A stretch of DNA of 64,000 nt, taken from assembly GCA_028820695.1 (NCBI GenBank), contig JAPPIB010000055.1, positions 64,015-128,014 on the forward strand. The letters run 5' to 3'. Below the pieces are notes generated by a model. That model was not told where the DNA came from and did not search any database. It saw nothing but the letters and a program-made list of their open reading frames with translations. Shown one piece after another: positions 5,052 to 33,232 of the stretch (its first letter is position 1; each line of letters starts with the position of its first letter). The position numbers and the translations under genes were made by a program. The DNA comes from Acidiferrobacterales bacterium (GTDB lineage Bacteria; Pseudomonadota; Gammaproteobacteria; Arenicellales; JAJDZL01).

Positions 5052-5744
5052 TCAGCTGGATGGCGCAGGTCGAATTTCTGCCAGCGCGTTTGCCACAATC
5101 GACTCATCCACTTCGGAACAGTCGTTCAGATCGACGAAGTGACTGCTGTCCTCAAAGTCGCACTCCGTATATCCGAAGTTGATTGCACAGAATTTCCTCA
5201 GGGCCGAAATTTCAGTCAGCTGGTCAGCGTCCTGTGCACGCAACTTGTCTCGAACCCGCGCATCCAGCACCAGCATGCGGGGTACCAACTCGCCTTCCAT
5301 GGAAAGGCAGCCGCGCATCCTGAATGCCGTAACACCCTTGCAATGATGCAATACAGTCGCCAGTCTCGAAGAAAGCCCCCGCCCTTCGCAATACAGCCCT
5401 GCGTCGGCAATCATGAGACTTGACCGTGATGCGAATTCACTGGCTGACAGCAGACCGCGGGACACTCCTGCGTCCTCATCCAACACCAGGTAGGATAGTT
5501 CGGCCTTGAGGTCCGCGTATTGACGAACGGCCTCCCGGTGACGGATCAGATTTTCGGGCGTTGCTCCGATCAGGATTTTTCTGATACCGGCCGATGCCAT
5601 CACTTCAATGGTAAAACACACGCGGGGAATGTCATCGGCTGATTCTGTACGGTTTCCGGTTACCGTTATGGGCAAAGAAGCCTGCGACTGTCGTCCCAAT
5701 GCAAAGATCAGACCCTTACAGTCCATACCGGGAAGGGGTATCAA
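5052..5744 (-). CDS. RmlA-like nucleotidyltransferase-fold protein with a degenerate active-site loop
   Basis: KGLIFALGRQSQASLP and MASAGIRKILIGATPE align by eye to RmlA KGIILAGGSGTRLYP and LMLAGIRDILIISTPQ. The GxGTR motif is lost. Confidence 0.4.
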   Translation of the reverse strand: MIPLPGMDCKGLIFALGRQSQASLPITVTGNRTESADDIPRVCFTIEVMASAGIRKILIGATPENLIRHREAVRQYADLKAELSYLVLDEDAGVSRGLLSASEFASRSSLMIADAGLYCEGRGLSSRLATVLHHCKGVTAFRMRGCLSMEGELVPRMLVLDARVRDKLRAQDADQLTEISALRKFCAINFGYTECDFEDSSHFVDLNDCSEVDESIVANALAEIRPAPSS

Positions 5745-7431: not shown

Positions 7432-8157
7432 GTGAAAGTTTGCACACGTCACATCTTGTGCGTCCTCGCCGTCTCATCGTTTTGGGCGCTCACCGGCTGT
7501 GCGACACTTCAAACGCCGGTCGCCTGCAACGCACTGGATCCGGAAGAATACCAAGAGACGCATGATCCGCTCGAATCATTCAATCGCGACATGTTTGAGT
7601 TTAACGAGAGTACGGACAAAGCGATCTATCAACCTGTCGCCAGAACATACAAAGCAATAACACCCGATCCGGTGGAAACCAGTGTTTCCAGTTTTTACAG
7701 AAACCTCAAGGAACCGAGAAATATAGTCTCGTCCCTGTTGGCGGGAAGGACGGATATAACGGCCGAATCCAGCATACGATTCACAATGAATTCGACTCTG
7801 GGTTTGCTTGGCCTGATTGATCTGGCAGGTCATGCTGGAATTCCGTACAACGACTACGATTTTGGCCATATGCTAGGGGCCTGGGGAGTCGGTGAGGGTC
7901 CGTACGTTGTCTGGCCATTTACAGGTCCGAGCAATATGAGAGATACTGCCGGCTCTGCGATCCATCTGCAAGTGACCTATGTGGAAAAACGTATCAAGAA
8001 GTCAGAACATCAACTCTTTGTCCAAGTCGGTTCTGCGGTTGATAGCCGGGCCCGTCTGTTGCCATTCACCGAGCTGCTTGACCAGCAACCAGACCCGTAT
8101 CTGTTTGCCCGGGAAAGCTATCGGCAAGCCCGCCTGAACACGATCTGTAATCCTTAG
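7432..8157 (+). CDS. mlaA: Phospholipid-transport lipoprotein MlaA (VacJ)
   Basis: GTG start and lipobox ALTGC. DPLESFNRDMFEFNESTDKAIYQPVARTYKAITP and NLKEPRNIVSSLL match the conserved MlaA N-terminal blocks. Confidence 0.8.
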   Translation: MKVCTRHILCVLAVSSFWALTGCATLQTPVACNALDPEEYQETHDPLESFNRDMFEFNESTDKAIYQPVARTYKAITPDPVETSVSSFYRNLKEPRNIVSSLLAGRTDITAESSIRFTMNSTLGLLGLIDLAGHAGIPYNDYDFGHMLGAWGVGEGPYVVWPFTGPSNMRDTAGSAIHLQVTYVEKRIKKSEHQLFVQVGSAVDSRARLLPFTELLDQQPDPYLFARESYRQARLNTICNP

Positions 8158-27753: not shown

Positions 27754-28619
27754 GCAGTCAGGAAAGATTAGGCCAGGGCTTGAGTGCGTTGCTTGGGTCG
27801 GCCGCGACGAAAGCGACGACAGCTCCGATTGATCATGTGAGCATGATCGCGATTGAAAAGCTGCACTCAGGTGCCTATCAGCCGCGTATGGAAATAGAAG
27901 ACGAGCCGTTGCGACAGCTGGCCGACTCAATCAGGGCCCATGGCATCATTCAGCCAATTCTCGCGCGCGAGTCGGACAGCGGCACTGGATTTGAGATCAT
28001 TGCCGGAGAACGAAGATGGCGGGCGGCGCAGATGGCGGGTCTGCACGAAGTGCCGGTCATTGTCCGTACGCTGAACGATCAGTCGAGTATGGCGATGGCA
28101 CTGATTGAAAACATTCAGAGGGAGGACCTGAACCCGGTTGAAGAGGCGAACATGATCAGAAGACTGGTTGAGGAGTTCAATCTCTCGCACGCTCAGGTCG
28201 GTGAGAATGTCGGCAAGTCGCGAGCCACCATCACCAATATACTGAGACTATTGTCATTGGCTGAACCTGTGTTGGAAATGCTTCAAAACCGTCAGATTGA
28301 GACGGGTCACGCCAAAGTCCTGCTTGCGCTTGCCAAGACCGATCAGATTGAGGCGGCACGGGTTGTCGTGCAAAATGCCCTGAATGTGCGAAAAACAGAG
28401 GATTTGGTCAAACGCTGGGGCGAACGCGGGCGCAAGTCGGGTAAAATAGCGAAACCCAAGGATTCCGACATTTCCAGGCTTGAGCGAGAATTGTCAGAAA
28501 AAGTTGGAGCGAAAGCCGATATTCATGATCGGAATGGAAAAGGATACATCAGGATTCACTACGGAAATCTTGATGAGCTTGACGGGATACTTGAACGAAT
28601 GAATCTGAACATCGAGTGA
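27750..28619 (+). CDS. parB: Chromosome partitioning protein ParB (Spo0J)
   Basis: [43 protein letters not shown] and [17 protein letters not shown] are the ParB boxes. It has an ATGA overlap with parA. Confidence 0.93.
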
Positions 28620-28657
28620 AGGCACAAACAGTTATGGAAACCGTCACAAAGTCACAG

Positions 28658-29767
28658 ATGAACCACGTTGCCAAACTGACTGTGGTCATTTTCTCAGCAC
28701 TGGTCATCACCGGTTGCGCGGAATTTGGTGGTAAACAACTGTCGTTGCTGCAGTCGTCCCGAGTGTTGGACCCGCTGGAAGTTCCACCGGGCCTGTCCCC
28801 CCTCCCGGAAGCTGAGCAGTTCCAGATTCCCGGTGAGTACAATCCGGCTGAACTTGCTCCCGAGGATCTTTCTCCAGAACAGTTCAGAAACTATGGGACG
28901 TGGGTTGAATTCGAGAAATTCCAGGAGTTTCAAAGAGCGGACAAGGGTATTGGTGTTGACGCGGATCAGTATCGCGAGGCCGTCGAACGCGGCGAGGACT
29001 TCTTCAAGGTAACGGTGATTGATACCGGAGAGAACGCGATACGATTGCGGGTGGTCGATTCAGCACAGGCCGTGTTTGAGCGGATGAAGGTTGCGCTCCA
29101 CAACATGGATGTCAAGGTGAACAGTGCCGATGAGGAAATCGGTAAATTCGTTGTTTCCGGGGTTGATATCAAGAAGTTGCCCACCCTGCTGCAGCGAATA
29201 GGATTCAAGGAATACAAAGGAAGAATCGATGAGTTGCACGTAGTAACGACGAGTGCCACCGAGACGCAGGTGGTCGCCAAGACTGAGTTCAACGTCGAGG
29301 TGAATGCCGAGGGCAGCAAGGAATTCCTGACCCGACTCAGGTACTATCTGCTTACGAGCTATCAGCAGGATGAGTCCGGCACAGCACTGGCGAGCGCGGT
29401 TTCCAATAAATCGATTACAGTGATCGAAGGACGGCAGACCATTGTAATTTCAGAGAATTTTGATTCGGCTTGGGTACGGGTTGGACGAACGCTGGAAGCT
29501 TCAGGTGTAAACATCGATGATCTGGATCGAAGCCAGGGTCTATATCTCGTCAGCTTCAGCCATCTGGAAAAAGACAAAAAGAAAAGATGGCGACTCGCAT
29601 TTTGGAGAAAAGACAAAAAAGAAGTAGCACAGAAGCATTTCAGGGTACTGGTCACCGACCATGGATCCCAGACAAGAATTCATGTTGAGGGCTCCGGGGA
29701 CGACGAGTCGGATGATCAATACGGCGAACAGTTGTTGGGGATCATTTACGAACGCTTGCTAACCTGA
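28658..29767 (+). CDS. BamC (NlpB)-like outer-membrane lipoprotein
   Basis: It has the lipobox VITGC, LDPLEVPPGLSPL, and FDSAWVRVGRTLEASGVNIDDLDRSQGLYLVSF resembling the BamC helix-grip domains. The start (28616, 28634 or 28658) is uncertain, and the family call is by eye. Confidence 0.45.
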   Translation: MNHVAKLTVVIFSALVITGCAEFGGKQLSLLQSSRVLDPLEVPPGLSPLPEAEQFQIPGEYNPAELAPEDLSPEQFRNYGTWVEFEKFQEFQRADKGIGVDADQYREAVERGEDFFKVTVIDTGENAIRLRVVDSAQAVFERMKVALHNMDVKVNSADEEIGKFVVSGVDIKKLPTLLQRIGFKEYKGRIDELHVVTTSATETQVVAKTEFNVEVNAEGSKEFLTRLRYYLLTSYQQDESGTALASAVSNKSITVIEGRQTIVISENFDSAWVRVGRTLEASGVNIDDLDRSQGLYLVSFSHLEKDKKKRWRLAFWRKDKKEVAQKHFRVLVTDHGSQTRIHVEGSGDDESDDQYGEQLLGIIYERLLT

Positions 29768-30063
29768 TCGGCCGGGGGTCATTTCCAGACTGAGCCTGGC
29801 ATCATCCATCCTTGTCAGCCCGCAGATCTGACCTTTGGAAAATCATCCAGCGCGCCCGACGGCGGAATAATTCACAATACGGTGCGCTTCATATCGCCGA
29901 TCGCAGCTGGACGTCAACGGCGGCCGATGGTGACAGTTCCTGCGCAAGACCAGCCAGACGGTGCTGTCCTTGCAATTGATTACTGCGACATTCCAGATAT
30001 TCGTTACCCGTTCGTGGCTTGCATCTTGCGCCCCAGAGCCATCTTGAGCGAACTCAGTCTGTG

Positions 30064-30105
30064 CTCCAGCCGCCTCAATCAAATGAATGCAGAGAAACGA
30101 ACATG
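30064..30105. repeat. Left copy of a 42-bp imperfect direct repeat flanking the AAA ATPase gene
   Basis: CTCCAGCCGCCTCAATCAAATGAATGCAGAGAAACGAACATG matches 31975-32016 at 37 of 42 positions in the same orientation. Confidence 0.8.
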
Positions 30106-30107
30106 TT

Positions 30108-30144
30108 ATGCACAAAATGCAAATACTATATGCATATTGTGCAT
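30108..30144. promoter_or_regulatory. AT-rich 14-bp-arm palindrome 20 bp upstream of the ATPase start (candidate operator)
   Basis: The arms ATGCACAAAATGCA (30108-30121) and TGCATATTGTGCAT (30131-30144) are reverse complements with one mismatch, separated by 9 nt. Confidence 0.4.
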
Positions 30145-30164
30145 GACAATGTACAATTGAAGTT

Positions 30165-31901
30165 ATGATTGATCGAGCTATCGCTTCGCGTCTTGTCAGG
30201 CTCTTTGAGCAGTATCCTTTCGTAACCGTGACCGGTCCGCGTCAATCCGGCAAGACAACACTGTGCCGCGCTGTGTTCCCTCATCTGAGGTACGTTAATC
30301 TAGAGTCACCGGATGTGCGGGAATTTGCTCAAAGCGATCCTCGCGGATTCTTGTCTGAAATTGACGATGGCGCAATTATTGATGAAGTTCAGCGTGTCCC
30401 GGAACTTCTTTCATACCTGCAGGTTCTGTCAGACGATAAAGGGCGTAGTAGCCTGTTTGTTCTGACAGGCAGCGAACACTTCAAACTCTCAAACACAATC
30501 AGTCAGTCCCTGGCAGGCCGAACCGGTTTACTTTACCTGCTTCCCTTAACCATTGCTGAACGCGACAGCACGGGTGCCGGCCAATCAATCGAAGACATTC
30601 TCTATTCGGGATTTTATCCACGCATATATGACCAGCAGCTTGATGCAAACCAAGCCTACTCTGACTACTTTGAGACTTACGTTGAACGGGACATACTGCG
30701 GATAGGCCAAATTCGCAATCGGCAGGAATTTCGGCGTTTCGTTCGTCTGTGTGCCGGCAGAATCGGACAGATCGCGAACTTGAGCACAATTGGAGCAGAT
30801 GCAGGTATATCGCACACAACAGCACAACAGTGGCTCAATCTTCTGGAAACCAGTTTCATTGCTTTCAGATTGCCTCCATTTCGTGCCAATCTTCGCAAGC
30901 GTCTCGTCAAGTCACCAAAAATCTATTTTTACGATGTAGGGCTCGCGGCCTATCTGATCGGTATCAACCAGCCGGAACAGATCAGCACCCACCCGATGCG
31001 AGGAGCGTTATTTGAGAACATGGTCGTCGTAGAAACCATGAAGTATTGTTTCAATAACGGGAAACGAGAAATTCTTTCTTTTTTTCGTGACAGTCGAGGT
31101 TTGGAGTGCGACTTGCTGTTCGAGACAGGCGATGAAATATTCGCGATCGAGATCAAATCGGGAGCAACGATCGCAACCGACTATTTCAAGCCGTTTGACA
31201 GAATTGGAGATCTGATTCCGAAAATATCAAGAAAAATCATTGTCTATGGCGGTTCGGCTCGCCAAACCCAAAGTTCAGTTGAGGTGGTGCCTTTCGGTGA
31301 CCTGTCTGATGTGCTTGATCGTTTTCAAGCTGAAAAAGAAATGTCATCCATTGCACGAACTGGTCTGTCCGATTTGCCCGATTCGTCTGACCGCGGCACA
31401 CTGGACGCAGTGTTTTACGCATACATCAGACCCACGCTTGATCATCTTGAGCAACTGCTGAGCGAGCATGTGAAACCGCTATTTCAAAGATATCACGCCG
31501 GCTCGAAACTTAGTGTCAGGGATCGAACAATCAACTCGGCTACCCTCTTCGAGCCCTCGCGCTGGGAGTCAATCAAAGAGCAAGAATTCGCATTTGTGGG
31601 ATTTAGAATCGAAAAATTGCAGCCACTGATATTCGTTCACAGTCTGGAGTTGAAGAATTTAGTTACCAACCTCAACCTTAACTTGACCGTTTCGTTGAAA
31701 TGGACTTTCGACACTGAAGCGTTGACACTTACGATTGATGTCGATGGAAATCAATGTACTGGGCTGTCGGGCCTGCGATGGCCTCATTCCCAAATCGGAA
31801 TCCAAAGTGCAAAAATTGACTTCATCTGTTCGACAGTCCTGAAATCAATCAAACTCGCGATTCAGCAAAATGCTTTGAGCGATTCTGACAGCCGCAAGTA
31901 A
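30165..31901 (+). CDS. AAA+ ATPase of the COG1373 type (AAA_14 + DUF4143-like) with a ~180-aa uncharacterised C-terminal extension
   Basis: It has Walker A VTGPRQSGKTTL, Walker B AIIDEVQRVPEL, then LTGSEHFKLS, GR...L.LLPL and FENMVV.E. This is the usual order in this ATPase family, but at 578 aa it is longer than the roughly 400 aa I recall as typical. Confidence 0.7.
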   Translation: MIDRAIASRLVRLFEQYPFVTVTGPRQSGKTTLCRAVFPHLRYVNLESPDVREFAQSDPRGFLSEIDDGAIIDEVQRVPELLSYLQVLSDDKGRSSLFVLTGSEHFKLSNTISQSLAGRTGLLYLLPLTIAERDSTGAGQSIEDILYSGFYPRIYDQQLDANQAYSDYFETYVERDILRIGQIRNRQEFRRFVRLCAGRIGQIANLSTIGADAGISHTTAQQWLNLLETSFIAFRLPPFRANLRKRLVKSPKIYFYDVGLAAYLIGINQPEQISTHPMRGALFENMVVVETMKYCFNNGKREILSFFRDSRGLECDLLFETGDEIFAIEIKSGATIATDYFKPFDRIGDLIPKISRKIIVYGGSARQTQSSVEVVPFGDLSDVLDRFQAEKEMSSIARTGLSDLPDSSDRGTLDAVFYAYIRPTLDHLEQLLSEHVKPLFQRYHAGSKLSVRDRTINSATLFEPSRWESIKEQEFAFVGFRIEKLQPLIFVHSLELKNLVTNLNLNLTVSLKWTFDTEALTLTIDVDGNQCTGLSGLRWPHSQIGIQSAKIDFICSTVLKSIKLAIQQNALSDSDSRK

Positions 31902-31974
31902 GTCATGCGGCACCGGCTGATCGGGCAGTCAGTTCGATCGGTTCCAACACTCAATGGATACCGCGTCGCCGCAA

Positions 31975-32016
31975 CTCCAGCCGCCTCAATTGACTGGATG
32001 CAGAGAAACGAAAATG
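31975..32016. repeat. Right copy of the 42-bp imperfect direct repeat flanking the AAA ATPase gene
   Basis: CTCCAGCCGCCTCAATTGACTGGATGCAGAGAAACGAAAATG matches 30064-30105 at 37 of 42 positions. Confidence 0.8.
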
Positions 32017-32160
32017 CCTGTATCTCAAGCGTAACTGAGGAATCTTTGCCCGGGCGAGTTTGGAACGCCAGGCAACATCATGTAGCGAAAGCATTGAGAC
32101 TGTTGGAATGATGGCTGAATCCTGCCTGGTCACAGACAGTATCCATTGTCCGGGACTGTG

Positions 32161-32475
32161 TTATTCGCCGGTTTGATTGACGGGCTGGGCATCCGGGTTG
32201 TTTCGAAGCCATTCCTGATATTTCTGGTACTCTTGCCACTCTTTCCAGAGCAAGTATTCCTGATAAGCTGGATCGTCTTCACCGGGGCCGAGCCGCCCAC
32301 CGCCTTGATTGAACAAAAACAGCGGCGAACCTTGGATATCTCCCCCTCCTTTCGGGTTATCTGGAACAGGAGGGTGACTTGACTTCCGGTCTGACTGCCT
32401 GTCTCCACATCCCAACAGGGCACCTAGTGTAAATACCACCGTAGCGAATAGAATCAAGGAAGACTTTTTTGACAT
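32161..32475 (-). CDS. Small lipoprotein, W/Y/Q/E-rich C-terminus
   Basis: The internal start MSKKSSLILFATVVFTLGALLGCGD gives a signal peptide plus lipobox. I see no recognisable family. Confidence 0.5.
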   Translation of the reverse strand: MSKKSSLILFATVVFTLGALLGCGDRQSDRKSSHPPVPDNPKGGGDIQGSPLFLFNQGGGRLGPGEDDPAYQEYLLWKEWQEYQKYQEWLRNNPDAQPVNQTGE

Positions 32476-32530
32476 TTCAATGACTGCCTGCTCAGAATTT
32501 TCAGCACATGACCTTACAAACCGGTGGTTA

Positions 32531-33232
32531 TTATATTGAACAATTTGACAACTGGGGCAGTTCGTCAGAAGTTTGCGACGACGCAATCTGTTGAATCAGC
32601 TGCCCGACATACGGAGCGATTCGGCCGACAATCAAGTCAACACCCGCCTCATTCGGATGAATGCCATCGTTTTGATTCAATGACGGTTCGGTTGCGACGC
32701 CGTCAAGAAAAAAAGGATAGAACAGCAAACCAAACTCCTCGGCGAGGTCCGGGTAGATGCTGTCGAACCTTTCGTAGTAGTCTGCTCCAAGATTGCGGGG
32801 CGCCTTCGCACCGAAAAACAATATGGGCAACCCTCTGGACTGGATTTTCCTGATTATTTCGGTCAGGTTGTGACGAACGGACTCAACCGGTACAGCTCGA
32901 AACGCGTCGTTGTAGCCCAGGAACACAATCACGCCCGAGTATGGATCGGACAGCACCCAGTCGACCCGCGCGAGTCCGCCGCCAGTGGTATCACCGGACA
33001 CGCCGGAGTTGACGATGCTGACCGGGCAGCCTCTCTCCTTCAGTGTGTTCTGCAGTTTTGACGTAAACCCGTGTTCGGACGCGAGTCCGTAACCTGCGAT
33101 CAGACTGTCGCCGATTGCGACAATCCTTATTGATTCCGGGGAGGCAGCGTCAGTTTCGGCCGGCAGCAAACCTGCAACAACAAAAATGACTGCTGCCAGG
33201 CCCGGAAACGAACCGAAGAACGTGTTATTCAT
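32531..33232 (-). CDS. SGNH/GDSL hydrolase, TesA-like (acyl-CoA thioesterase I / lysophospholipase L1 family)
   Basis: A signal peptide is followed by IVAIGDSLIAGYG (block I), NSGVSGDTT (block II), GYNDA (block III) and DGIHPN (block V). Confidence 0.78.
   Translation of the reverse strand: MNNTFFGSFPGLAAVIFVVAGLLPAETDAASPESIRIVAIGDSLIAGYGLASEHGFTSKLQNTLKERGCPVSIVNSGVSGDTTGGGLARVDWVLSDPYSGVIVFLGYNDAFRAVPVESVRHNLTEIIRKIQSRGLPILFFGAKAPRNLGADYYERFDSIYPDLAEEFGLLFYPFFLDGVATEPSLNQNDGIHPNEAGVDLIVGRIAPYVGQLIQQIASSQTSDELPQLSNCSI

Follow-up and report, generated by a model that had tools for sequence, protein, structure and literature searches.

The segment between positions 29768 and 32160 of the DNA analysed here, a 64,000-nt stretch referred to below as the window, carries one long ORF only, 30165-31901 (578 aa), which lies between a bamC-like gene and a small lipoprotein gene and is separated from them by 397 nt on the left and 259 nt on the right. 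The preliminary description of this DNA had reported a sole convincing ORF with about 400 and 260 bp of non-coding flanks and no integrase or transposase in the segment, and both statements hold. The ATPase gene is the sole ORF and its neighbours are the bamC gene, the lipoprotein gene and a GDSL lipase gene; there is no transposase coding sequence in 29768-32160, and blastx of the islet flanks against intact congeneric transposases gave nothing significant. The bamC-like gene, located downstream of parA-parB, is the conserved left anchor of a variable site, and its synteny is kept in 39 of 41 relatives. The small lipoprotein gene, with the GDSL lipase gene next to it, is the conserved right anchor and has no match in Pfam or NCBIfam. 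The gap between the two anchors lies near the replication-origin gene block. The features of the locus and the evidence for each are given below.

28616-29767, plus strand: bamC-like lipoprotein gene (Pfam Lipoprotein_18/NlpB, E 1.3e-15; database homologue named BamC)
29825-29944, minus strand: 3'-terminal remnant of an aldehyde dehydrogenase gene, which comes first in the metabolic island of relatives (nhmmer E 9.1e-5, above all 200 shuffles)
30010-30070, plus strand: remnant of codons ~227-248 of a class-III aminotransferase gene (nhmmer E 0.031, blastx E 0.22, above all 200 shuffles)
30064-30105, plus strand: left 42-nt repeat, an internal fragment of an ISAs1-type IS right end (model positions 480-520; profile E 2.4e-7)
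30104-30148, no strand assigned: palindrome, probable operator of the ATPase gene (arms 30104-30121 and 30131-30148, 16/18 complementary, 9-nt spacer)
30152-30157, plus strand: -10-like hexamer TACAAT with TG just before it (read from the sequence; a generic promoter scan made no call)
30165-31901, plus strand: intact ATPase-nuclease gene, PADLOC PDC-S01 long form (Pfam, PADLOC, 30 homologues, AF2 models, Foldseek)
31922-32020, plus strand: right IS relic, covering the terminal ~100 nt of an ISAs1-type right end (nhmmer E 1.2e-18, envelope from 31902)
32036-32138, plus strand: second remnant of that aminotransferase gene, spanning codons ~355-388 (nhmmer E 4.9e-8, blastx E 5e-4)
32161-32586, minus strand: small lipoprotein gene (tblastn synteny in relatives; lipobox LLGC read from the sequence)

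The protein encoded by the intact gene consists of a P-loop ATPase, a winged helix, a PD-(D/E)XK nuclease and a C-terminal domain of ~190 aa. Pfam assigns residues 18-132 to AAA_14 (E 1.9e-24) and residues 174-333 to DUF4143 (E 5.5e-51), both above the cut-offs, and the Walker A GPRQSGKTT, the Walker B IIDEVQ and the DUF4143 region that had been noticed at first reading are all present. DUF4143 is listed in the PD-(D/E)XK superfamily (PMC3424549). Among 30 full-length homologues with 51-66% identity to the protein, residues G24-T32 (GPRQSGKTT), D73 and E74 are invariant, as are the nuclease residues E314, D316 and K331, while E329 is nearly so. The PADLOC profile of PDC-S01, PDLC04790, matches residues 1-377 over profile positions 11-414 of 422 (E 2.5e-92). 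Foldseek matches are to Can2/VC1899 PD-(D/E)XK nucleases, ORC/Apaf-1 ATPases and MarR/ArsR winged helices. Searches of Pfam, NCBIfam and PDB sequences gave no match for the ~190-aa C-terminal domain, and Foldseek finds no fold match for it despite a confident AF2 model. PDC systems have been described as phage-defence candidates (bioRxiv 10.1101/2024.01.29.577857; PMC12988326), and the candidate PDC-S01 is reported to rank fourth in frequency among the defence systems detected in prokaryotes (PMC12988326). The ATPase is probably an NTP-dependent nuclease directed at invading DNA, the defence role being a prediction for the family as a whole. The earlier statement that such ATPases are often accessory agrees with this assignment to a defence candidate.

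Within the genus, PDC-S01 is found in 12-34 divergent copies per genome, each occurring singly, at a different locus in every genome and often near other accessory genes. The present genome has nine other paralogues of the ATPase, all at most 61% and mostly at most 44% identical, and these values rule out a recent duplicative spread. A strong compositional foreignness of the gene is likewise ruled out. Comparison of GC and codon usage, which had been proposed as a check on the insertion idea, gives a mildly low GC (47.9%, 7th percentile) and GC3 and an ordinary codon usage.

The palindrome in front of the gene, at 30104-30148, is unique in the genome; its first 2 nt coincide with the end of the left repeat, and comparable but different palindromes are found upstream of homologues and paralogues. 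The hexamer TACAAT ends 7 nt before the ATG, there is no Shine-Dalgarno sequence, and the ATPase homologues have TGTATAATTGA at an equal distance from the ATG; from its sequence, the ATPase transcript is predicted to be leaderless or near-leaderless. The ATPase probably binds its own palindrome via the winged helix and so represses its own gene. To the milder version of the module idea taken up below, that the palindrome simply serves autoregulation, we would give an even chance. The ATPase unit, as we define it, extends from the start of the palindrome at 30104 to about 31921, at most 20 nt past the stop codon. That PDC-S01 genes have their own specific palindromes and a promoter abutting the start could make the function of this system testable.

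The ATPase unit is bracketed by a direct repeat of 42 nt, 30064-30105 and 31975-32016, with a spacing of 1911 nt; a repeat search recovered the two copies as one family, and BLAST of the left flank against the right flank gives E 4e-11. The preliminary description was right about the shared orientation, the 37/42 identity (88%) and a perfect block of 16 nt (CTCCAGCCGCCTCAAT); the second perfect block is 15 nt (ATGCAGAGAAACGAA), not 18. Chance expectations of the two halves of the repeat in the window are 0.05 and 0.10, and in 100 shuffles neither half ever reached 2 matches. Pattern, BLAST and nhmmer searches of the whole genome recovered 4 copies of the element, 3 of which extend to about 90-115 nt. 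A REP- or MITE-like family is ruled out by this number. Outside this genome, 40 relatives were searched and the 42-mer element is absent from all but a single congener (G001), where an IS relic occupies an unrelated position, and a scan of GTDB genome contigs for the IS terminus likewise returned only this congener, an Arenicellales MAG.

The origin of the repeat is revealed by these other copies. The two sister copies in the same genome (contigs C10 and C20) lie about 110 nt after ORFs that are C-terminal relics of a DDE transposase, and in the congener the IS end likewise follows such a relic. These relics are 61-74% identical to transposases of congeners that belong to the ISAs1 family (NF033564, 160-202 bits vs a cut-off of 70), in a subgroup with an N-terminal DruA-like domain. 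An intact IS in another relative (G005) is 2115 bp long and has 229 nt between the transposase stop codon and its end, ...CACCTG. The right ends of the elements studied here finish in ...CATGCCTG.

In an nhmmer search with a profile built from the C10, C20 and G001 copies, the right relic aligns to the last 115 profile positions, with an internal deletion of 14 nt. It includes the right 42-mer and reaches the terminus, ...ATGCCTG, which is the exact point where all copies diverge and aminotransferase homology resumes, so that the conserved terminal sequence of the IS is present at a junction with target DNA. At 32020/32021 a true IS terminus abuts aminotransferase sequence, and the homology to the right probably starts directly at it (32021). 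The left copy, in contrast, comprises the core of 41-42 nt only and has neither the upstream IS sequence nor the terminal CCTG. Since it lacks the IS terminus, its right-hand junction cannot be a transposition junction. The identity of the left copy to the C10, C20 and G001 copies is 74-81%; the left and right copies are the closest pair (88% vs 64-81%), with 1-2 shared derived bases only to back their sisterhood. Every copy of the IS in this genome is a right-end stump. There is no intact copy and no left end in the genome, where an inverted left end was sought with up to 5 mismatches, known right ends aside, and no intact copy of this exact sequence type exists in any collection searched. 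No target-site duplication survives, and on the left side the target gene has lost about 300 nt. The repeats are eroded right ends of an extinct ISAs1-family IS, so that the locus holds IS relics, not an IS, and the 42-nt direct repeat is the part of the right end still common to both relics.

The interrupted gene itself belongs to an older layer of the site. Close relatives (bamC 79% and 65% identical at the amino acid level) have a 6.7-kb metabolic island between bamC and the lipoprotein gene, with genes for an aldehyde dehydrogenase, a betaine-type ABC transporter, a GntR regulator and a class-III aminotransferase. Other relatives have a 4.8-kb ABC-transporter island at this place, and more distant congeners have about 290 nt only. 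Searched with a DNA profile of the relatives' island without its flanking genes, and with 200 shuffles of the flanks as null, the islet flanks yield three relics that are colinear with the island, lie on the same strands and exceed all shuffles. The aldehyde dehydrogenase relic has the position and orientation seen in G016, G017, G011 and L061. The left aminotransferase relic is a weak match singly, yet it is colinear and on the expected strand; it shares its final 7 nt, CTCCAGC, with the beginning of the left 42-mer, and in the alignment the relatives read ctgtaCTCCAGC at this junction point. Because the island is at the site in relatives at both distances and has no orthologue elsewhere in this genome, where the best matches are paralogues at 36-48%, it is the ancestral content of the site and has since been lost. 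The ATPase gene and the IS relics thus sit inside a dead aminotransferase gene. None of the relatives compared has the ATPase between bamC and the lipoprotein gene, their sites holding other content, and the suggestion of a derived, accessory single-gene insertion is therefore sustained. In this Arenicellales genus, accessory DNA is exchanged at the gap. The genome studied here, at 2.77 Mb, is the smallest of its genus. No genome closer than 79% (bamC) and no intermediate state was seen in any collection searched, and JGI metagenomes hold no relative of this bamC.

Taken together, the locus is a palimpsest of three layers, and we consider it quite probable that an IS-flanked ATPase unit was inserted and deletions followed, with the gene probably encoding a self-repressing candidate defence nuclease. 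The first layer is the 6.7-kb island, of which three short colinear relics are left. An ISAs1-family IS then transposed into the aminotransferase gene. The third layer is the intact and self-contained ATPase unit between two relics of the IS right end, and we infer that it arrived between two IS copies in direct orientation, either as a composite transposon or as a translocatable unit beside a resident copy. Later deletions would have taken both transposase genes and most of the island, and one of them would have fused the aminotransferase gene with internal IS sequence at the 7-nt microhomology CTCCAGC. The gene is flanked today by two same-orientation fragments of one IS end that are each other's closest relatives and may each once have been a whole IS; their differences at 5 of 42 positions, like the mildly low GC and unremarkable codon usage of the gene, bear on the age of the arrangement. 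Several observations speak against the composite route: no intact IS flanks the gene, no target-site duplication survives, and it takes three separate deletions, with endpoints that coincide neatly with the limits of the unit. The weak score of the left aminotransferase relic taken singly, the missing IS terminus of the left repeat, the thin support for the sisterhood of the two copies and the lack of a relative closer than 79% (bamC) likewise count against the account.

The main competitor to a composite arrival is that a single IS resided in the aminotransferase gene and that DNA carrying the ATPase unit next to the right end of the same IS was captured by recombination. This could occur through a single crossover of a circular molecule within the common IS-end sequence, or through homology-facilitated illegitimate recombination that was anchored in the IS end on one side and joined at an (A)TG microhomology on the other. 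Either event would duplicate the shared IS-end segment, and one later deletion at CTCCAGC would remove the IS body. Such a capture needs fewer deletions than the composite model, and it accounts for the left copy stopping 4 nt before the IS terminus, for the TG overlap with the palindrome and for the IS sequence 5' of the downstream copy. However, the incoming DNA must already have had the ATPase unit adjoining the same rare IS end, from an IS known only from this genome and one congener, and homologous recombination would have a short substrate in the 40-100 nt of shared anchor. The comparison turned up no donor arrangement, the homologue loci sharing no flank sequence with the islet, and we regard capture as unlikely. 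The coincidence of the unit edges with recombination junctions, together with the 12-34 divergent copies per genome, each at a different locus, underlies the idea that PDC-S01 genes may be minimal autonomous modules of a gene-specific palindrome, a promoter for a leaderless transcript and one ORF for ATPase, winged helix and nuclease. In its boldest form, the protein would use its winged helix and nuclease on the palindrome to aid movement or capture of the module. If true, PDC-S01 would be a selfish single-gene element instead of, or besides, a defence gene, an idea to which we attach a slim chance.

The interpretation originally offered reads the 42-mers as scars, of an att or target-duplication kind, left by site-specific insertion; it would call for a single-gene cassette with a recombinase that acted in trans or was lost. 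It drew on direct repeats around a single accessory gene and gains from a site that varies among relatives. It does not survive the identification of the repeats as fragments of an ISAs1-family right end, whose boundaries do not fit. Extra IS sequence flanks the downstream copy left and right but is lacking around the upstream copy, which is the opposite of a target duplication, and 42 nt far exceeds the target duplication of any transposase. The 42-mer is part of a dispersed repeat, present at two further places unrelated to the ATPase gene beside transposase relics and not beside ATPase paralogues, a finding that the preliminary description itself had named as counting against insertion. An empty site with a single 42-mer had been named as a thing to look for; the relatives' sites in G016, G017, G011, G021 and G023 have no similarity to the 42-mer. 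Nor are bracketing repeats a trait of the family: six homologue loci have no flanking direct repeats, the nine other paralogues have none either, and the locus L056 has an inverted 53-nt pair beside another transposase relic. We therefore think an att or target-duplication origin highly improbable. Hardly more credible is a selected functional motif at both ends of the gene, such as a binding site, a small RNA or a terminator/promoter pair, with a coincidental likeness to the IS end. The two copies are indeed more alike than either is to the other IS relics, but they contain no tRNA, tmRNA or known RNA (no Rfam match at E up to 1) and no promoter or terminator call on the strand of the gene, the motif is absent at every homologue and paralogue locus, and its left boundary is a microhomology junction with the pseudogene.

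With this reading of the locus as IS relics in a lost island, what looked like an unknown integration mechanism resolves into an eroded IS and a lost metabolic island, in a genome smaller than any other of its genus, and the case is one of ordinary mobile-element decay. It provides a worked example of how solo IS ends can mimic att sites, of microhomology deletions shaping a streamlined genome, and of the bamC-lipoprotein gap as a place where accessory DNA is swapped. Among known systems, the gene resembles PADLOC PDC-S01 (COG1373, AAA_14 plus DUF4143) in the full-length HMM match over its first ~377 residues and in the kept Walker A/B and PD-(D/E)XK residues; it differs in being the long form of ~575 aa with the extra ~190-aa C-terminal domain. 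The locus shares with att-bounded islets of tyrosine or serine recombinase elements the direct repeats at both ends, the accessory segment and the variable site. It differs from them in having no recombinase, a repeat that derives from an IS rather than from a duplicated target, and no empty site with the repeat. The terminus ...CCTG matches that of the intact 2115-bp ISAs1-family element (NF033564) in G005, whereas the right end is reduced here to pieces of about 100 nt and 42 nt. ISAs1-family elements are not known as classic formers of composite transposons, and unlike a composite transposon the locus has no transposase, left end or target duplication, its upstream piece being an internal 42 nt only. 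The likeness to a decayed composite transposon or translocatable unit consists in a single cargo gene flanked by two same-orientation pieces of one IS, in a genuine IS terminus set against the interrupted target gene at one of the junctions, and in the reduction of all further copies of this IS in the genome to stumps.

The 2.4-kb segment between the bamC-like gene and the small lipoprotein gene carries a single long ORF bracketed by two direct repeats, as the preliminary description had reported, and the ORF listing and the repeat search reproduce both features at the positions claimed. Of the two perfect blocks within the repeat, the 16-nt one stands, while the second is 15 nt and not 18 nt long.

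28616-29767: bamC-like gene (Pfam NlpB/DapX)
30064-30105: upstream copy of the 42-nt repeat, matching only the core of the element described below
30165-31901: ATPase ORF, 578 aa, with AAA_14 and DUF4143 domains
31975-32016: downstream copy of the 42-nt repeat, 37/42 identical to the upstream copy
32161-32586, minus strand: small lipoprotein gene

These copies form the one 42-nt direct-repeat family in 29000-33000, and comparison of the non-coding flanks with each other returns the 42-nt match alone (E 4e-11). Neither half of the repeat occurs anywhere else in the 64-kb window, where chance would give 0.05-0.10 occurrences. We searched the whole assembly (2.77 Mb, 58 contigs), in which the window lies at C55:64015-128014, with the islet by BLAST and found that places on contigs C10 and C20 resemble the downstream copy together with additional sequence on both of its sides. 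The search for further copies proposed earlier, run with a profile, puts their number in the genome at exactly four, three of them long (the downstream copy, C10:31390-31481 and C20:23200-23284) and the fourth being the upstream 42-mer. C-terminal relics of a DDE transposase, in the form of short ORFs, precede the element by about 110 nt on both C10 and C20. The same pairing of relic and element recurs in the congener G001 (E 7.9e-16). With the C20 relic as query, six-frame searching of 40 relatives recovers further relics at 61-74% identity, as well as intact transposase genes encoding roughly 590-625 aa, of which a single genome has up to 17 copies; the intact proteins belong to the ISAs1 family (NF033564, 160-202 bits; cut-off 70 bits). 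An intact IS in the relative G005 is 2115 bp long, its transposase stop lies 229 nt from the right terminus, and it ends ...CACCTG; the elements of the present genome end ...CATGCCTG, where likeness among all copies stops. The pairing with transposase relics, the layout of the G005 element and this shared terminus together identify the element as the right end of an ISAs1-type IS. With a longer profile, the right relic in the window spans 31922-32020 (E 1.2e-18, with an internal gap of 14 nt) and its envelope starts at 31902, immediately after the stop codon of the ATPase gene; the left relic matches model positions 480-520 only.

A search of the whole genome found neither an intact copy nor a left end of this IS, and its remains are right-end stumps only, on C10, on C20 and twice in the window. 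Apart from this genome, the collections searched contain this IS type in G001 alone, an Arenicellales MAG. Intact ISAs1-family elements lie in G005 (locus L050, 898-3011) and at multiple places in the relatives G024, G008 and G009; G005 has ten matches of identical score and G024 about 17. The transposase of the G005 copy carries a DruA-like (Druantia) N-terminal domain besides its ISAs1 family match.

Comparison of the interval 29768-32160 with seven loci of relatives (L027, L028, L029, L030, L031, L060 and L061) reveals that the bamC-lipoprotein gap, which follows parA-parB directly within an origin-proximal block, serves this Arenicellales genus as a swap site, the ATPase islet being one of its contents.

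Contents of the bamC-lipoprotein interval in relatives, with amino acid identity of bamC
G016, G017 and G011 (79%): 6.7-kb aldehyde/betaine/aminotransferase island
L061, a metagenomic relative (65%): the same 6.7-kb island
G021 and L060 (70-71%): 4.8-kb block of a spermidine/putrescine-type ABC transporter
G023, with G005 and G022 similar (52-56%): about 290 nt

No genome closer than 79% in bamC was present in the collections searched. The ATPase is absent from this site in all of the relatives compared, and their best ATPase homologues lie at least 100 kb away from it. In the 6.7-kb island an aldehyde dehydrogenase gene on the minus strand is accompanied by genes for a betaine-type ABC permease, OpuAC, a GntR regulator and a class-III aminotransferase. 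A DNA profile of this island, built without the flanking genes and run against the islet alone, gives three colinear matches on the same strand.

29825-29944: 3' end of the aldehyde dehydrogenase (nhmmer E 9.1e-5)
30010-30070: aminotransferase, codons about 227-248 (nhmmer E 0.031; blastx E 0.22)
32036-32138: aminotransferase, codons about 355-388 (nhmmer E 4.9e-8; blastx E 5e-4)

All three score above the best of 200 flank shuffles, and elsewhere in the genome there are no orthologues of the island genes, the best matches being paralogues at 36-48%. These results indicate that the ATPase gene and both IS relics sit within a dead aminotransferase gene, the final vestige of an island now gone from this lineage.

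The two edges of the inserted material differ. At 32020/32021 the IS terminus meets aminotransferase-like sequence that is about 67% identical to that of the relatives right up to the terminus; this is a true transposition junction. The left edge of the upstream 42-mer falls within a 7-nt microhomology (relatives' aminotransferase ...ctgtaCTCCAGC..., IS ...caaCTCCAGCCGCC..., window ...ctgtgCTCCAGCCGCC...), a sequence signature pointing to a deletion or an illegitimate join and not to transposition. Its right edge lies 4 nt inside the IS terminus and shares TG with the left arm of the palindrome of the ATPase gene. Sequence of the IS beyond the 42-mer is present on both sides of the downstream copy and on neither side of the upstream copy, the opposite of the geometry expected of a target duplication, which we therefore reject. 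The segment is an accessory insertion, as had been proposed, but the repeats derive from an IS and are scars neither of att recombination nor of target duplication.

The islet combines relics of the IS and of the island with one true junction between IS and target, one microhomology junction and an intact, self-contained gene that lies between the relics. We tentatively prefer, at somewhat less than even chances, a history in which the gene would have come between two directly repeated IS copies, either as a composite transposon or as a translocatable unit integrated beside a resident IS copy, and the IS bodies would then have been lost by three deletions; such a course agrees with the erosion by deletion that all other copies of the IS show, and with the small size of this genome. 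Rather unlikely, in our judgement, is a single resident IS that received captured DNA consisting of the gene together with part of the same IS end, through a single crossover or homology-facilitated illegitimate recombination, followed by one deletion. Under either history the 42-mer is a by-product of IS sequence and not an att site. A recent arrival or a recently spreading element is rejected, since the codon usage of the gene is ordinary and its paralogues in the genome are all divergent; the comparison of base composition suggested earlier gives a GC of 47.9% and a GC3 of 49.7%, both mildly low (7th-8th percentile). On these grounds the unit is an old resident.

The protein matches the PADLOC family PDC-S01 over residues 1-377 (E 2.5e-92). 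PDC systems are defence candidates identified by "guilt-by-embedding" (bioRxiv 10.1101/2024.01.29.577857); PDC-S01, described as a fusion of an ATPase with a PD-(D/E)XK domain, is reported to rank fourth among "defence" systems by commonness across prokaryotes (PMC12988326), and DUF4143 is listed within the PD-(D/E)XK nuclease superfamily (PMC3424549). The long form of roughly 575 aa is widespread, with thousands of homologues and a best match at 67% identity. Walker A and B together with E314, D316, E329 and K331 are conserved in 30 homologues. The full-length AF2 model (pLDDT 74.5) has Foldseek matches to the Can2 and VC1899 nucleases, to ORC/Apaf-1-type ATPases and to MarR/ArsR winged helices. 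The C-terminal part of about 190 aa (residues 385-578, window 31317-31898) is predicted to fold confidently (pLDDT 82, pTM 0.76) into an antiparallel sheet with two long helices around it. It belongs to no Pfam family and its model has no significant fold match in the PDB (best Foldseek E 0.028), and I421, F440, W467, W513 and L534 within it are invariant in the 30-sequence full-length alignment.

Among the neighbourhoods of homologues, the gene for P0003 (62% identical; locus L056) is flanked at about 5138-5190 and 7813-7865 by a 53-nt inverted repeat (92%) that adjoins a Transposase_mut relic, another case of IS debris around this family. An SLFN_AlbA_2/HATPase_c_4 gene lies directly downstream in two of the three closest homologues (L056, 8229-9941; L057, 8234-9511), and the third (L055) has an AAA_15/AAA_21 ATPase gene nearby; these neighbourhoods look accessory or defence-like. 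Elsewhere in the assembly, eight contig ends share an identical sequence of 50-55 nt (C20:25363-25417 and ends of C24, C36, C29, C3, C23, C11 and C26), probably a multi-copy repeat left unresolved or an assembly artefact at contig breaks. A 1158-aa ORF on C10 (locus L003, 8985-12461) appears, judging by its sequence, to be a fusion of an FAD-dependent monooxygenase-like N-terminal part with a squalene-hopene-cyclase-like C-terminal part.

Upstream of the ATPase gene lie a palindrome (arms 30104-30121 and 30131-30148) and a TACAAT box (30152-30157), the latter separated from the ATG by 7 nt; the start lacks a Shine-Dalgarno sequence. Homologues in other genomes have TGTATAATTGA at an equal distance from the ATG and different palindromes of their own. 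Inverted repeats scoring at least 12 precede 4 of the 10 paralogues in this genome, whereas 0.7% of 300 control genes score even 10 or more. At PDC-S01 genes, palindromes particular to each gene occur 10-70 nt upstream of the ATG, together with a TGTATAAT-like box whose end lies about 7-9 nt from it, again with no Shine-Dalgarno sequence. This layout is seen at window 30104-30157, at four places in the same genome (C18:8387-9541, C18:6992-8152, C10:137488-138702 and C10:6418-7527) and at loci L056, L057, L013, L009 and L012. This arrangement suggests that the ATPase may repress its own gene via the winged helix and that mRNAs of PDC-S01 genes may be leaderless. The combination of palindrome and promoter is the most useful by-product of this analysis, and suggests simple experiments on a very common family of defence candidates. 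The islet itself is an instance of known things, an accessory gene flanked by solo IS ends and a member of PDC-S01.
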